Under the pieces are notes generated by a model. It did no database searches, had not been told where the DNA came from, and saw nothing but the letters and a program-made list of their open reading frames with translations. From positions 96,001-160,000 of the IMG/VR virus record IMGVR_UViG_3300045960_000114: DNA of 64,000 nt; one strand, 5' to 3'. Shown here one piece after another: positions 1,450 through 39,298 of this stretch (position 1 is the first letter of the stretch; every line of letters starts with the position of its first letter). The translations under genes were made by a program, and so were the position numbers. Origin of the DNA: a virus.

Positions 1450-1912
1450 ATGGGAGAAGGTCCGAAAGTTCCGCAAGACTCTCAACATCTGGACAACGGT
1501 AGTATTCACTAACGGTTGTTACGACGTGTTCCATGCAGGACACGTTCAGTCACTGAAGTTCGCCAAGAACGTCGTTCACGACACCTGTCTGTTTGTCGGG
1601 GTCAACGATGACGACAGTGTGCGCCGGCTAAAAGGCAGCGGGCGCCCGATCAATGACGTAACGTCACGCATGGTGGTTCTGAGTGCCTGCCGATTTGTAG
1701 ACATCTGCGTACCGTTCAGCGAAGACACACCTGAGAAGCTGATCCAGCTGCTCAGACCACATTTCCTAATCAAGGATGCGTGGTACCGGCGGAAGTATGT
1801 GGCTGGTGCAGCCTGGGTGAAGAAACACGGAGGGAAGGTGCTGTTCGCGCCGACCATGGAGGGGATCTCGACGACGGAGATCCTACGGAGAGGAGGAGCC
1901 TGTGGCAGTTGA
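1421..1912 (+). CDS. rfaE2: RfaE/HldE domain II-like nucleotidyltransferase (heptose-1-phosphate adenylyltransferase family)
   Basis: FTNGCYDVFHAGH (HxGH), VGVNDDDSVRRLKG..RP, FSEDTP, EGISTT. ATG 1421 follows GGAGG. Confidence 0.88.
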   Translation: MSTKNPWENEWEKVRKFRKTLNIWTTVVFTNGCYDVFHAGHVQSLKFAKNVVHDTCLFVGVNDDDSVRRLKGSGRPINDVTSRMVVLSACRFVDICVPFSEDTPEKLIQLLRPHFLIKDAWYRRKYVAGAAWVKKHGGKVLFAPTMEGISTTEILRRGGACGS

Positions 1913-2453
1913 AGGGACACTGAATGGCTGGCTGCAATTAACAGACAGCTCGCCGCTGAATGACGAGGAATCGGCGGAGCTGGCCAAGTGGTTCATGGAG
2001 TATCGGAAGGACGATCCGAACTGCGAGAAGGAAGAGGCACTCTGGAGTGGTGACAATAAGGTAATCCCATTCTCGATCACTTTCTGGGATGGCTGGCCAC
2101 CGTGTGTCTGGAAAGATCTGGAGCAGTTGTGTGGCAAGCTGAAAAAAGGTTCCTGGATTCTGTTTCACTACACGACCAGGAACATGTACTTCAACTACAC
2201 GATGCAATCGATCCTGGTCAACCAGGAAGGCGTTCGATCCACGGGTGATCCGTTCATGGACGATCCGCTCATGCAGATCGTTGGTGGACCACTCCGGGGA
2301 GAGCAACCGGAAGAGAAGGACGAGCTGGACATCTCCGACGAGGATGTGGATGCCGAGCTGCGGGCATACGACCCGAGCTCCGTACCTGACGGTGGCTGGG
2401 GCGATGAGGGATACGACGACGAAGTTGACGAAGTTGACGAGGACTGGATCTAA
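1902..2453 (+). CDS. Hypothetical protein with acidic C-terminus
   Basis: GAGGAGG RBS, GTG start overlapping the upstream stop. Confidence 0.7.
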   Translation: MAVEGTLNGWLQLTDSSPLNDEESAELAKWFMEYRKDDPNCEKEEALWSGDNKVIPFSITFWDGWPPCVWKDLEQLCGKLKKGSWILFHYTTRNMYFNYTMQSILVNQEGVRSTGDPFMDDPLMQIVGGPLRGEQPEEKDELDISDEDVDAELRAYDPSSVPDGGWGDEGYDDEVDEVDEDWI

Positions 2454-3131: not shown

Positions 3132-3872
3132 ATGTCGTTGATGAAGTTCAAGAAGACGATCGAGTTCCTCGCCGAGGTTGTCCGGCCTGGTGAACCCGAC
3201 GACGAGGGTAGGGAACTGCAGGTAAGCGAAGGCCAACGTCTGTACGGGTTGTACGTGGACGGACGCGACATCTTCCTGTCCTCCCGTTCCGATGAAGGGA
3301 TGGCCCCGGCGATGCTGCTGGTTCTGCCGAACACTGAGCCCGAGCATATCGGTCTGGCAGACATTCCCACGAATGTTGAGCCGGTTGCCGACCCCGCGCC
3401 GGTTACTACGTTTGTTGACGACACGTCGCATGACGATGACGATGGCGACACTTGTTCCAACTGCAATAACGCTAGGGATGAGTGTACCTGTGTCGATGGG
3501 GACGACGACGACTCCGACAGCGATGAGGACGACGAGGACAGCGACGAGGAGTATGACCGCTGTGCACACTGCGGGCGACTTGAGTCCGACTGCTCGTGTC
3601 CCATGTGTGCCAACTGCGGATGCAAAGTCATAGAGTGCATCTGCGCGCCGGACGAGGAGGACGAGGATCACGAGCCGGACGAGGGTGAAACGGAAGAGCC
3701 GGAAGAACCGGAAGAGGCGCACGATGAGGAACCGCCGCCGCAGCCTGAGTTGCGCGCGGAGGTCATGGAGGCGACGCTGACGGTCGAGAAGCCCATACCG
3801 CCTGGTTGGTTCACAACGGGTGAGATCTGCCAGGGCTGTGATCATCCGCTCAATGAGTGCATCTGCACCTGA
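3132..3872 (+). CDS. Asp/Glu-rich protein with four CxxC-x6-CxC motifs
   Basis: GAGGAG RBS. Four Cys clusters within acidic tracts. Confidence 0.8.
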   Translation: MSLMKFKKTIEFLAEVVRPGEPDDEGRELQVSEGQRLYGLYVDGRDIFLSSRSDEGMAPAMLLVLPNTEPEHIGLADIPTNVEPVADPAPVTTFVDDTSHDDDDGDTCSNCNNARDECTCVDGDDDDSDSDEDDEDSDEEYDRCAHCGRLESDCSCPMCANCGCKVIECICAPDEEDEDHEPDEGETEEPEEPEEAHDEEPPPQPELRAEVMEATLTVEKPIPPGWFTTGEICQGCDHPLNECICT

Positions 3873-3881
3873 GGAGGTCTG

Positions 3882-4940
3882 ATGTCGTTCATACTGTTCA
3901 CGGACGCCCACGTCTGCATGCAGGCGTGGCGTGACATGCCGGGCGTTCGGGGCGACGCGTACCAGTCACTGTCACAGGTGATTCGGTACGCCGTCGACCA
4001 CAAGGTCGAAGCGGTCGTGGACGGCGGGGATCTGTTTGATGCCCAGCCCACGGCGTACGACGCCCACTTCATGCTTTCCGCTGTCGAGGAGCTGAAGCGG
4101 GCTGGCATCAAGGTGTACAGCATCCAGGGACAGCACGCCCGCGACAGGATTATATCGTGGGCATGCATCGACCCCTACGTAACCAATCTGGAAGCCGCCG
4201 GGCCAGTCACACTAGCCGACGGCAAGATTGTCATGCAGGGATTCGACCACAGTCCTGCGGAAGAGCTGAAGGCCAAGCTGGAGTCGGGGCTCAAGCCGGA
4301 GACAAACGTCCTCGTCCTTCACCAGAAGGCGACAGGTGTCACGCCTGGCATGGGTGCCGACTTCGATCCCGAGTGGGTGGATTGTCACGTCAGGCTGGTG
4401 CTGATGGGCGACTACCACAAGGCGATCAACTGGTCACGCCCGTGTCCTCCGCCACTCCCGCCGATGCAGTTGATGTACAACGGCAGTTTGTGCATGCAGG
4501 CCATTGACGAATGCCCGGAGAAGTTTTTCACGGTGGTTTACGACGACCTGTCATATGAACGGGTGAAGCTGACTACGCGTCCGTTCATGGCGTCGATGGT
4601 GCAGTCACAGGAGCAGTTGGACAAGCTGCTGGAACAGCTGAAGTCGTTCCCTGCGGAGGGGATGCTCGTGGTCAAGTTCGACACGCGCATCAAGGACGTA
4701 GAGGACCTGCTGCGCAAGCGGCGCCCCGACATCAACATCAAGGCGCGCCCGCTGCCGATCGTGGTGGCGGACACGCCGGTCCCTCTGCCGGGCTCGATCT
4801 CGTTGGAGTCGTGTCTTCGCGTCCTGGCCGACCCGGCAAAGGATGCCGAGCTGTATTCCTTTGCCAAGCAGTTGATCGATTCCCGTGACGTTCGCGGGAC
4901 GCTTCAGGAGTGGCGCGGGAAGTTTCTGCAAGACGTTTGA
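3882..4940 (+). CDS. sbcD: Mre11/SbcD-like metallophosphoesterase nuclease
   Basis: FTDAH, GGDLFD, GQH and GDYH motifs. The Rad50-like partner lies 2 kb downstream. Confidence 0.88.
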   Translation: MSFILFTDAHVCMQAWRDMPGVRGDAYQSLSQVIRYAVDHKVEAVVDGGDLFDAQPTAYDAHFMLSAVEELKRAGIKVYSIQGQHARDRIISWACIDPYVTNLEAAGPVTLADGKIVMQGFDHSPAEELKAKLESGLKPETNVLVLHQKATGVTPGMGADFDPEWVDCHVRLVLMGDYHKAINWSRPCPPPLPPMQLMYNGSLCMQAIDECPEKFFTVVYDDLSYERVKLTTRPFMASMVQSQEQLDKLLEQLKSFPAEGMLVVKFDTRIKDVEDLLRKRRPDINIKARPLPIVVADTPVPLPGSISLESCLRVLADPAKDAELYSFAKQLIDSRDVRGTLQEWRGKFLQDV

Positions 4941-11815: not shown

Positions 11816-12373
11816 ATGGATCATGAGGAAAAGGTCTCTCTCTACGTGGAGAGGCTGATGGATGCGTATGTCCGTTTGCGCAGGAAGTACCGGCCCACCT
11901 TCGTCAAGGTGAACAGTCCGAACGTCCGGCTGTGGCGCAGCTGTGCCACCGCGCTGATTGAGATGAACCTCAATCCGTATCAGTTCGCACAGTACGTTTT
12001 CGATCTGGTCACCGAGCGGCGACCGGATGTTTACGAGTCGGAGATTACATCGGTGAAGTTGGCCAATGCGCACGCGCAAGACCGGCCCATGCTTAAGGAG
12101 AAGCTGAAGCTGCAGGTGAGCCTGCAGGCCGCCAAGATCAAGAATCACCTGAAGCTGGGTGAACCGCTGGCGGACATTTTGATGAACGAGACGTATGGCT
12201 TATTGCTGCCTGTTCGTTTCGCCACGGCATGGTCGGAGGGGCTCAAGGACTTGGCTGAGCACCTGCGACCTGAGGCCGAAGAGGCAATCATCTTTGAGCC
12301 GTATTACTTGGAACTGCTCAAGGATTACTTACCGGAGGACATTCACAATGTCGTCAGAGTACATACGTCTTAG
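11816..12373 (+). CDS. Hypothetical protein between the helicases (possible loader)
   Basis: Continuous ORF. The function is guessed from position only. Confidence 0.65.
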   Translation: MDHEEKVSLYVERLMDAYVRLRRKYRPTFVKVNSPNVRLWRSCATALIEMNLNPYQFAQYVFDLVTERRPDVYESEITSVKLANAHAQDRPMLKEKLKLQVSLQAAKIKNHLKLGEPLADILMNETYGLLLPVRFATAWSEGLKDLAEHLRPEAEEAIIFEPYYLELLKDYLPEDIHNVVRVHTS

Positions 12374-37614: not shown

Positions 37615-37955
37615 ACGCAGAGGTGTTAGCGGACTACAAGATGGAGCCGGACGGATACTTCACGGTATCGCGAACGCTCAGTCTGCCCTTTACGCCGGTG
37701 GTGGGGATGTGTCTGGAGTGGGGCGAGGATTTGTTTACCATTCAGAGTGTGACATGGGACGCGATTGGTGACAAGTTCATGTTGGAAGGCATTTTGGAGT
37801 ACACGCCCTGCAAGTACGAAGAGGCGATGGACACGATTGAGGGGCTGTGGGAGGACGGCTGGAAGTTTGAGATTGCCACCAGTGAGTTCTTTGAATCCAA
37901 GCATGCGGACAAGGCGGAGCTGGAGCGGTTCATGAAGACTTGTCCTGCGGGATAG
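37611..37955 (+). CDS. Hypothetical protein (paralogue-like to 43311-43607)
   Basis: LPFTPVVG...FTIQSV...LWEDGW. Confidence 0.65.
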   Translation: MNAEVLADYKMEPDGYFTVSRTLSLPFTPVVGMCLEWGEDLFTIQSVTWDAIGDKFMLEGILEYTPCKYEEAMDTIEGLWEDGWKFEIATSEFFESKHADKAELERFMKTCPAG

Positions 37956-37981
37956 TGCATTCAGATAGGGAGGACTGCGGG

Positions 37982-38167
37982 ATGAGGCGTCTGAAGAGTG
38001 TCGAGACGGACCAGTACAGTCTCGAGGTGATCGAGTGTGACTGTGGGTATCACATGGGGATAGACTCCAGTTTCCTGGATCAGGTGGGTGATTTTGAGAC
38101 CACATGTCCTTCGTGTGAGAGGGCTATCCGGACGGAGGATATTGTTCCGGAGGACATTGACGGATAG
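37982..38167 (+). CDS. Small zinc-ribbon protein
   Basis: CDCG...CPSC. GGGAGG RBS. Confidence 0.65.
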   Translation: MRRLKSVETDQYSLEVIECDCGYHMGIDSSFLDQVGDFETTCPSCERAIRTEDIVPEDIDG

Positions 38168-38169
38168 CT

Positions 38170-38196
38170 AAGGAAAAGGCGTAGTGCCTTTTCTTT
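38170..38196 (+). terminator. Terminator-like hairpin
   Basis: AAGGAAAAGGC-GTAGT-GCCTTTTCTTT. Confidence 0.65.
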
Positions 38197-38197
38197 G

Positions 38198-38276
38198 TGC
38201 CCCCTGCGGCGTAAACGGCCTGGCCTGATCAACCAGGACATCCAGGATGATCTCCTGGTTAGCGCTGTTGGGGGTA
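38198..38276 (+). ncRNA. Long irregular hairpin, non-coding
   Basis: TGCCCCC/GGGGGTA outer stem and AACCAGGA/TCCTGGTT inner stem. Confidence 0.4.
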
Positions 38277-38284
38277 TCAGTTTT

Positions 38285-38438
38285 GCCGCGATAGCTCAGA
38301 GCGAGCCCGTACCCTGCAAGTACGGTGTGTAGCCGGCGCGCATGCGACCGGTGAAAGTCTGGATCCGACTGGGAGAGTCACGTGCTCCCTGCCAGTTGGC
38401 CGAGCCAGGCGAAGGGGGTGCGACTCCCTCGCGCGGCA
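38285..38438 (+). ncRNA. tRNA-like RNA with 88-nt variable region
   Basis: GCCGCGA-TA-GCTC/GAGC D arm, CCGTAC-CCTGCAA-GTACGG anticodon arm, GGGGG-TGCGACT-CCCTC T arm and GCGCGGC-A acceptor 3' strand (6 of 7 bp). No CCA. Confidence 0.6.
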
Positions 38439-38474
38439 CTTCAAAGCAACTTCAATTACCTTGGAGGATGAAGC

Positions 38475-38738
38475 ATGGCAGAAATCATCGCTACGTATTC
38501 CCCGTGCTGCGGGATCTTTCACACAGGAGACGCAGAGCAGGGAATCATGCACTGCGCACTGCCGCATGAGCGGCAAGTCATAAAACTGGTGGATGAGAAG
38601 GAGCTAGGGATACTTGCGATACTTGAAGAAGAGAATCGCAGGCTGAAGCAGATGAACAAGCGTTTTGAAATAGCGCTTCGCGGCCTTGGCTACACGTCGG
38701 ATAGCTCGATTTTCATTCAGGTGACTAGGCTTGCGTGA
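38475..38738 (+). CDS. Small protein with C/H cluster and coiled coil
   Basis: GGAGG RBS preceded by CAATTACCTT. Confidence 0.6.
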   Translation: MAEIIATYSPCCGIFHTGDAEQGIMHCALPHERQVIKLVDEKELGILAILEEENRRLKQMNKRFEIALRGLGYTSDSSIFIQVTRLA

Positions 38739-38810
38739 GTGTAAGGCAATAGGAGGATTCTGCTGTGAGTGCAGCAGAGGCACAAACAGGATTATCTTGG
38801 AGGTAGCCCG

Positions 38811-38981
38811 ATGGACCCAGTATGCGTACGACACCGAGACGGATGGTGTGCTACTCGGTTAAAGAAAGCCAGATACCGCGACTCAATTAGGACGTTGTGT
38901 AATCATTATGTGGTACTTCCGCTTGGAGTTGAGCGTAGGCAACCGACCTGTGCTTGGTGCCTGGCGCTAAAGGCAAAGTGA
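38811..38981 (+). CDS. Small Cys-rich protein
   Basis: GGAGG RBS. WCA...TLCNH...PTCAWC. Confidence 0.55.
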   Translation: MDPVCVRHRDGWCATRLKKARYRDSIRTLCNHYVVLPLGVERRQPTCAWCLALKAK

Positions 38982-39034: not shown

Positions 39035-39298
39035 ATGCCAGAGATAAAAGATACGCACACCGTCTACGGGCCAAGTCCAAAGTACGAAGTCAAGAGTAGT
39101 AAGGTCGTCACTTACAAGATTCGACCATGCCCGTTCTGTCACAAAGCTCCGAAGGAAATTATGCATATGACCACAGGGGCGATCCTCAAGGACGGATCGA
39201 TAGAAGAGTCGCGTGCCGTGACGTGCCAGTGCGGAATTTACGGACCAATTCGTGATAGCGCGGCCAGTGCCGTCGCTGCGTGGAACGGGATCGAGTGA
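39035..39298 (+). CDS. Lar-like restriction-alleviation family zinc-finger protein
   Basis: RPCPFCH...VTCQCG..GP...AVAAWN. Confidence 0.65.
   Translation: MPEIKDTHTVYGPSPKYEVKSSKVVTYKIRPCPFCHKAPKEIMHMTTGAILKDGSIEESRAVTCQCGIYGPIRDSAASAVAAWNGIE

Follow-up and report, generated by a model that had tools for sequence, protein, structure and literature searches.

A tRNA-shaped element with an 88-nt insert in the variable-loop position in the genome of an uncultured phage

In the 64,000-nucleotide (nt) stretch of DNA analysed here (the window; bases 96001-160000 of IMG/VR virus record IMGVR_UViG_3300045960_000114, a linear, uncultured phage genome of 185,265 base pairs (bp) with 57% G+C and a CheckV completeness of 88%), a single-copy element of 154 nt (38285-38438, plus strand) has the arms of a transfer RNA (tRNA) in their canonical order but carries 88 extra nucleotides at the position of the variable loop. 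Very likely this tRNA frame is genuine and the element is descended from a tRNA gene. The reading that we favour, and hold tentatively, is that it represents a non-decoding tRNA-like RNA, derived from such a gene, which may act as a processing signal and/or as a scaffold for its insert; this reading rests on anatomy and context only.

The element had first been picked out from the letters alone as a tRNA-like RNA with a structured variable region, and the arm order, coordinates, 88-nt extra region and insert stems given in that original prediction were all borne out letter by letter (Table 1). The strands of the acceptor stem are also as it described them, but they hold an A7-G66 mismatch that it had overlooked. 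In total, 21 of the 22 stem positions are paired (acceptor 6/7, D 4/4, anticodon 6/6, T 5/5), U8 and A14 are present, and the D arm opens with TAGCTCA. The anticodon-like loop occupies 38313-38319, and the 6-bp stem below it is equally readable as 5 bp plus a C26:G44 pair. Within the extra region, stem strands are formed by CCGACTGG (38365-38372) and CCAGTTGG (38392-38399), and a GGCGAAG motif (38408-38414) stands immediately ahead of the T arm. The insert has no further copy elsewhere in the genome and, by inspection, no direct repeats flank it.

Using a descriptor of the tRNA frame we compared the phage genome with chance expectation. The descriptor required an acceptor stem of at least 6/7 pairs, a 2-nt spacer, a 4-bp D stem with a 5-11-nt loop, a 5-bp stem with a 7-nt loop, 3-120 free bases, and then a T arm with a 5-bp stem and a 7-nt loop abutting the acceptor 3' strand; the search covered 370 kb, both strands, with 12 second-order Markov genomes as the chance control. 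For the bare arm order the phage genome had 7 matches and the 12 simulated genomes averaged 5.2; by itself this order is worthless as evidence. When the T-loop motif T[GT]C[AG]A was added, the element became the sole match, with none in the 12 simulations and an expectation of ~0.02 per genome.

Of the finders named by the original prediction, neither ARAGORN nor Rfam calls the native element. ARAGORN in its default mode reported no genes in the window, its intron, low-threshold and mitochondrial modes gave mutually inconsistent sub-threshold calls, and nothing in Rfam matched the element at gathering score; the element is outside every curated RNA family. At E-values up to 10, weak Rfam matches run through the T arm (tRNA-Sec at 15.6 bits, the best in its clan, and Tymo_tRNA-like at 11.5 bits), and the two halves searched separately did no better than the whole element. 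With the extra region trimmed in silico to 23 nt or less, ARAGORN by default does call a tRNA-Ala(UGC), a call that fails at 105% of threshold, while the same trimming of 46 control matches (6 real, 40 simulated) produced no call. Among the T-arm-like hairpins of the genome, a matching acceptor strand together with TAGCTCA is found only in the element and in a sister element elsewhere in the record. It is because of the rarity of the T-loop motif, the trimmed ARAGORN call with 0/46 controls, and the rarity of TAGCTCA that we regard the frame as real and the descent from a tRNA as very likely.

A chance resemblance, in what would be a structured leader, terminator or operator region, is in our view quite improbable. 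It is consistent with the counts for bare arm order, with fold z-scores near -1.8, with the failure of every curated model to recognise the element, and with a 3' strand that can alternatively pair with 38332-38340, as it does in the Rfam tRNA-Sec alignment. Against it stand the low expectation once the T-loop motif is included, the uncalled trimmed controls, the presence of U8, A14 and TAGCTCA in addition, the last of these otherwise seen only in the sister among T-arm-bearing candidates, and a D-loop/T-loop combination that fits a real class of tRNAs, described below.

Judged from its sequence, the element cannot work as a normal tRNA, because of C33, the 5-nt D loop, the C3:G70 pair and the 88-nt extra region. 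The 7-nt loop CCUGCAA has C33 in place of the U33 of canonical tRNAs. Acceptor pair 3:70 is C3:G70 in the element, whereas the tRNA-Ala genes of two comparison phage contigs (L016 and L017) keep G3:U70, which is the alanine identity pair, and by the textbook rule an RNA with a UGC anticodon and C3:G70 would not be alanylated. The extra region falls outside the 4-24-nt variable range and is ~4 times the length of any natural variable arm.

A working decoder, whether a tRNA with a giant variable arm or one from which the 88-nt insert is spliced to leave a ~70-nt product, is for these reasons highly unlikely, even though the trimmed form is called as tRNA-Ala(UGC), the 7-nt loop has A37, and the variable pocket is the natural site of long arms. 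For the spliced form in particular, no intron or ribozyme family in Rfam matched the element at E-values up to 10, no helix of the bulge-helix-bulge type joins the two insert junctions by inspection, ARAGORN in intron mode gave only sub-threshold solutions that use other arms, and the insert lacks flanking repeats. Likewise, the phage record contains no RtcB and no CCA-adding enzyme, and its only ligase-like match lies below the family cut-off for an RNA ligase. The excisable insert offered by the original prediction is left without support by these results, while the mimic or scaffold RNA that it offered alongside is the explanation we rank first. We also considered an attP (phage attachment site) copy of a host tRNA 3' end, and rejected it: PF00589 (tyrosine integrase; serine integrases were not searched) is absent, the element has both tRNA halves, and its T loop differs from the bacterial type.

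The D loop without GG and the odd T loop had been remarked on as separate oddities, and both are indeed present; comparison with other phages indicates that they form a single feature. Using a gapped pattern search we found phage tRNA clusters on three comparison contigs (L016, 266 kb; L017; L018), which contain 11 tRNAs, for nine amino acids, with the T loop UGCRA and therefore G55. These G55-class tRNAs are located at L016 3884-8200, L017 4735-4809 (minus strand) and L018 3237-3309, those in L016 carry an encoded CCA, and ARAGORN misses some members of the class. In their alignment U54, G55 and C56 are invariant, as is U33, and GG is absent from all 11 D loops, which have, where G18-G19 would be, an A-G dinucleotide with an invariant G and a nearly invariant A (for example AGCAGTA and AATAGCA). 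Among 73 ARAGORN tRNAs of the loci examined, GG was absent in 7/8 G55 tRNAs compared with at most 8/62 U55 tRNAs, a figure that is inflated by the automatic parse (Fisher p = 4e-5). The missing GG and G55 are one co-varying feature, the elbow type of ordinary phage tRNAs, in which an A18-G55 contact presumably replaces G18-psi55.

The D loop AGAGC and T loop UGCGACU of the element have this elbow (A-G with U54-G55-C56-R57-A58). In addition, the D stem GCTC/GAGC is common to the element and the tRNA-Phe and tRNA-Thr of L016, and the T stem GGGGG/CCCTC recurs unchanged in the L016 tRNA-Val. The element departs from the class in its 5-nt D loop (7-10 nt in class members), in C33, in its length of 154 nt (71-75 nt through the discriminator), in having no encoded CCA and in its location outside a tRNA cluster; class members also have sensible identity elements, which the element does not. 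Our literature search for a G55/A-G elbow class found no paper describing one. Standard finders and the original prediction treat 'no GG' and 'G55' as defects, yet in real phage tRNAs the two make up a coherent elbow type, which matters for the annotation of tRNAs in phages and may be of more general use.

The sister element is a second tRNA look-alike, which lies 2 kb past the end of the window at record positions 162026-162097. With 46.8 bits against the Rfam tRNA model it is the one Rfam-grade tRNA of the record, and its D and T loops are canonical, but in place of the anticodon loop it has a cUUCGg tetraloop on a 6-bp stem and so, from its sequence, cannot decode. A G at position -1 is able to pair with C73, as in tRNA-His. 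The sister element follows a stop codon by 1-2 nt, and 13 nt separate its end from the next ribosome-binding site; by this placement it must therefore be part of a polycistronic transcript. The N7-TAGCTCA start is common to both elements, and both are followed by a variant of the leader CAATTACCTTGGAGG. This leader, CAATTAC(C/A)TTGGAG, is found directly before the start codons of at least five plus-strand genes (window 5145, 6068, 6439 and 38455, and record 162100), and at three or more of the other leader-bearing genes an ordinary hairpin stands where the tRNA shape would be; the motif may be an extended translation-start or processing signal. A search of IMG/VR with one pattern found no relatives of the sister element, matching only class II tRNAs with UUCG-capped variable arms. 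There is no other convincing tRNA in the record, and a tRNA-Asp(AUC) called by ARAGORN at record 12021-12094 was dismissed as a false positive, with several stem mismatches and no Rfam tRNA match.

In the favoured reading, the element would be transcribed from the plus strand and host tRNA-processing enzymes would recognise its acceptor/T-arm stack and elbow. RNase P would then cleave at the U38284/G38285 junction, with RNase Z or exonucleases trimming past A38438, to release a stable RNA of ~154 nt. The insert would be the working part of this RNA and would serve as an arm that binds protein or as a decoy. The 3' end of the element lies 36 nt ahead of the downstream ATG, and the cut would also set the 5' end of the downstream messenger RNA (mRNA) 36 nt before the start codon. 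In bacteria U is the usual base before RNase P cuts, and the element has U at -1. Because of this base, the placement of the sister between stop codon and ribosome-binding site, and the common leader, the most economical mechanism by analogy would be that the tRNA shape is an RNase P/RNase Z cut site with a t-element-like role. The presence of the 88-nt arm points to a further role for the released RNA itself; the variable pocket is the site where class II tRNAs also carry an extra arm.

When 38285-38438 is folded to minimum energy, the acceptor, D and anticodon stems form unaided. Forcing the full cloverleaf costs only 1.9 kcal/mol (-71.0 vs -72.9 kcal/mol), with the insert then folded as two independent hairpins, A and B, and the structure of the insert is plus-strand-specific. 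By itself, folding energy is weak evidence.

A number of observations weigh against the favoured reading. The minimum-energy fold pairs the insert with the 3' strand of the T arm instead of forming the T arm, and the fold z-scores are weak, at -1.79 for the whole element and -1.90 for the insert on the plus strand, compared with -0.48 on the minus strand. The general tRNA model RF00005 does not match the whole element or either half at E-values up to 10. The D loop is shorter than in all 11 members of the G55 class and C33 breaks a class invariant, and these two features suit decay equally well as repurposing. A terminator-like hairpin abuts the 5' end of the element, and a promoter search of the surrounding gap found none. 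The element is known from one copy, and the searches made found no homologue. Contigs L003-L008 share with the phage only the downstream gene, at 55-75% identity over the aligned part, and both the gap and the element are missing from them. L002, alone among viral contigs in having a relative of the upstream gene, likewise lacks the element, and there that gene runs straight into the next one.

The main rival is a decaying tRNA gene, in which a phage tRNA with a G55 elbow would have received an 88-nt insertion in the variable loop and lost part of its D loop together with its function, and would now be drifting, with any transcript of it devoid of a role. We consider this possible but on balance unlikely. 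C33, a D loop of 5 nt compared with 7-10, the A7-G66 mismatch and the lack of an alanine identity pair are all deviations of the kind that decay produces, and the narrow ARAGORN call of the trimmed form, the missing Rfam match and promoter, and the occurrence of a single copy that is absent from more distant relatives are equally in its favour. However, decay would have left 21/22 stem positions paired, all elbow nucleotides intact and an insert self-contained in two hairpins, with the cloverleaf within 1.9 kcal/mol of the optimum, and phage genomes rarely retain 300 nt of dead DNA. The anticodon-less sister, which is clearly not decaying, further shows that this phage keeps non-decoding tRNA shapes. 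What has been kept in the element is the elbow nucleotides and stems, and what has been lost is the decoding features (U33, the alanine identity pair and normal D-loop length).

Several known systems resemble the element in part, and the first two give the favoured reading a precedent. In plant mitochondria, t-elements mark mRNA ends for cutting by RNase P and RNase Z (Forner et al. 2007, PMC1920247). Like them, the element is a non-decoding, non-canonical cloverleaf that keeps the T arm and acceptor stem and lies beside a predicted mRNA end. Unlike the t-elements, which are organellar, of about tRNA size, have an ordinary GGTTCRANYCC T arm and serve as cut sites, it has G55, an 88-nt insert and a phage setting, and its cleavage is a prediction.

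A second comparison is with the YrlA RNAs, tRNA look-alikes that are RNase P substrates, receive CCA from the CCA-adding enzyme and occur in phages (Chen et al. 2014, PMC4201824). Like YrlA (RF02553), the element is non-decoding and has tRNA-like D and T arms and an additional structured arm, whereas YrlA is permuted, ending in the anticodon-stem position, is encoded beside Ro60 and has canonical elbow nucleotides. That the element is itself of the Y-RNA type, bound to a Ro60/Rsr ring protein through its insert as a docking arm, is very improbable. Its GGCGAAG fits the YrlA motif GNCGAAN0-1G (PMC4201824), but such a motif would occur by chance in an estimated ~7% of 154-nt stretches, and it is not near the 5' end as in YrlA. 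RF02553 has no match at the element and gives weak matches in the genome, of 13.9 and 10.6 bits (gathering 69), at 161994-162089, the sister element. Likewise, a six-frame search of the 185-kb record (88% complete) for the TROVE domain (PF05731) gave no matches at E-values up to 0.1, and no Ro60 gene was found. The arm order of the element is also the normal one and not the circularly permuted one of YrlA.

Class II tRNAs (Leu, Ser and bacterial Tyr) resemble the element in having extra structure between the anticodon and T stems, but their arms are single hairpins of up to ~24 nt, and the insert of the element has 88 nt and two hairpins in a body with identity and decoding features missing. 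In the engineered tRNA scaffolds of Ponchon and Dardel, the tRNA body reportedly gives a structured foreign RNA nuclease resistance and defined processing; there the cargo replaces the anticodon arm, whereas the element keeps an anticodon-like arm and has its cargo in the variable pocket. In a more speculative version of the favoured reading, which we think rather doubtful, the phage would use tRNA bodies with an A18-G55 elbow as a natural scaffold released by RNase P and RNase Z, the insert would be the active part (acting, for example, as sponge or decoy towards a host defence or RNA-binding protein), the sister would be the bare body, and both would punctuate mRNAs.

The element is located in a 307-nt non-coding gap (38168-38474) that ranks among the longer non-coding gaps, in a record with nearly all of its genes on the plus strand. 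Upstream of the gap is a gene for a 61-amino-acid zinc-ribbon-like protein (37982-38167, plus strand) and downstream a gene for an 87-amino-acid protein with no assigned function (38475-38738, plus strand). Codon-position G+C shows clear plus-strand coding on either side of the gap and none within it, and the four open reading frames overlapping the gap had no matches to Pfam or PHROG families; protein coding in the gap was rejected on these two results. The neighbourhood consists of small genes with no family matches, plus one Lar-like restriction-alleviation gene (39035-39298; PF14354, 31.2 bits; PHROG 599) ~600 nt downstream of the element, which fits an early or accessory region; this setting also speaks for the favoured reading.

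Two terminator-like hairpins precede the element. The first probably ends or attenuates the upstream unit, and the second was the sole terminator-like site found in 37800-38900 by a consensus scan, with shuffled sequences averaging 0.5. The promoter motif GTAAAA-N17-TAGYAT is, judged by eye, absent from 38197-38284. Between the upstream terminator-like hairpin and the element are two short palindromes (within 38199-38258), CCTGG-N9-CCAGG and CCAGGA-TGATC-TCCTGG, which have TGATC in common and could be operators or leader hairpins.

Table 1. Features of the element and of the gap that holds it, in window coordinates.
Feature	Position	Strand	Remarks
Weak terminator-like hairpin, then T-rich run	38174-38196	+	Just past the upstream stop (38167); read from the sequence, not listed by the consensus scan
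Second terminator-like hairpin, tail TATCAGTTTT	38252-38284	+	Ends one base before the element; U at -1
Acceptor 5' strand GCCGCGA	38285-38291	+	6/7 pairs with 38431-38437; A7 faces G66; followed by U8 A9
D arm: 4-bp stem GCTC/GAGC, 5-nt loop AGAGC	38294-38306	+	A-G dinucleotide kept, GG absent
Anticodon-like arm: 6-bp stem, 7-nt loop CCUGCAA	38307-38325	+	UGC at anticodon position; C33; A37
Extra region, 88 nt, variable-loop position	38326-38413	+	Hairpin A 38332-38352; long, internally looped hairpin B 38357-38410
T arm GGGGG/UGCGACU/CCCUC	38414-38430	+	One G-U pair; G53, U54, C56, R57, A58 and C61 kept; G55
Acceptor 3' strand GCGCGGC (38431-38437) and discriminator A (38438)	38431-38438	+	CUU next; CCA not encoded
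Translation start region of the 87-amino-acid gene: leader motif CAATTACCTTGGAGG, then ATG at 38475	38453-38477	+	Motif also before at least four other genes of the phage

Using several approaches we searched for relatives of the element. A blastn search with 38100-38600 against 50,697 phage records gave no match, and exact 25-mers and 17-mers of the element found no relative in IMG/VR, where three 17-mer matches were unrelated and one of these was an iteron array. A gapped pattern running from D arm to T arm matched only adjacent tRNA pairs within tRNA clusters in IMG/VR, and the single match of a similar pattern among 185,579 prokaryote genomes, in a Planctomycete metagenome-assembled genome, was judged to be chance (expectation ~0.13), since it lacks acceptor and T stems and overlaps a long open reading frame. 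In cultured phages, tblastn matched neither the upstream nor the downstream protein. For the downstream gene 15 related proteins are known from other sources, the closest two at 87% and 84% identity.

Other sequences came to light on the contigs examined. L002 has a tRNA with a CUA anticodon at 4856-4931 (amber suppressor type, labelled Pyl by ARAGORN). A 239-kb phage contig, L019, has at ~3790-3960 (minus strand) an oversized tRNA-like sequence with a TAGCTCAGTGGG start, a GGTTCGAATCC T arm and ~60 extra bases that include a UUCG-capped hairpin, for which ARAGORN makes no call. On L013, an unrelated viral contig and a chance pattern match, ~1900-2090 (minus strand) is occupied by about nine tandem copies of a unit of 18-20 nt (GGCTCAGAGTGAGCCAAC-like), in what looks like an iteron array.

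A single sequencing run contains the stretch; it is a DNA sediment metagenome and is probably the source sample. Contigs from this run have no variant inside the element, and the assembly graph branches at 38430-38459. A low-depth (3.7x) contig of 339 nt has these 30 bases in common with the phage, namely the last 9 bases of the element and 21 of the leader, and beyond them has a different gene start (MDEC...). This contig suggests a mosaic junction in a phage that is related to this one and present in the sample, and gives a slight indication that such a phage has at least the 3' end of the element in a different context.

As no more than a dead gene, the element would be an ordinary relic. 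Provided that its RNA is made and processed, it would be the counterpart, in a bacterial virus, of the organellar t-elements, and a case of natural cargo held in the variable pocket of a tRNA, where engineered scaffolds carry none. Such an RNA would also join a growing group of non-decoding tRNA look-alikes from large phages, for which the candidate functions include anticodon-nuclease decoys, Ro-type partners and processing signals.

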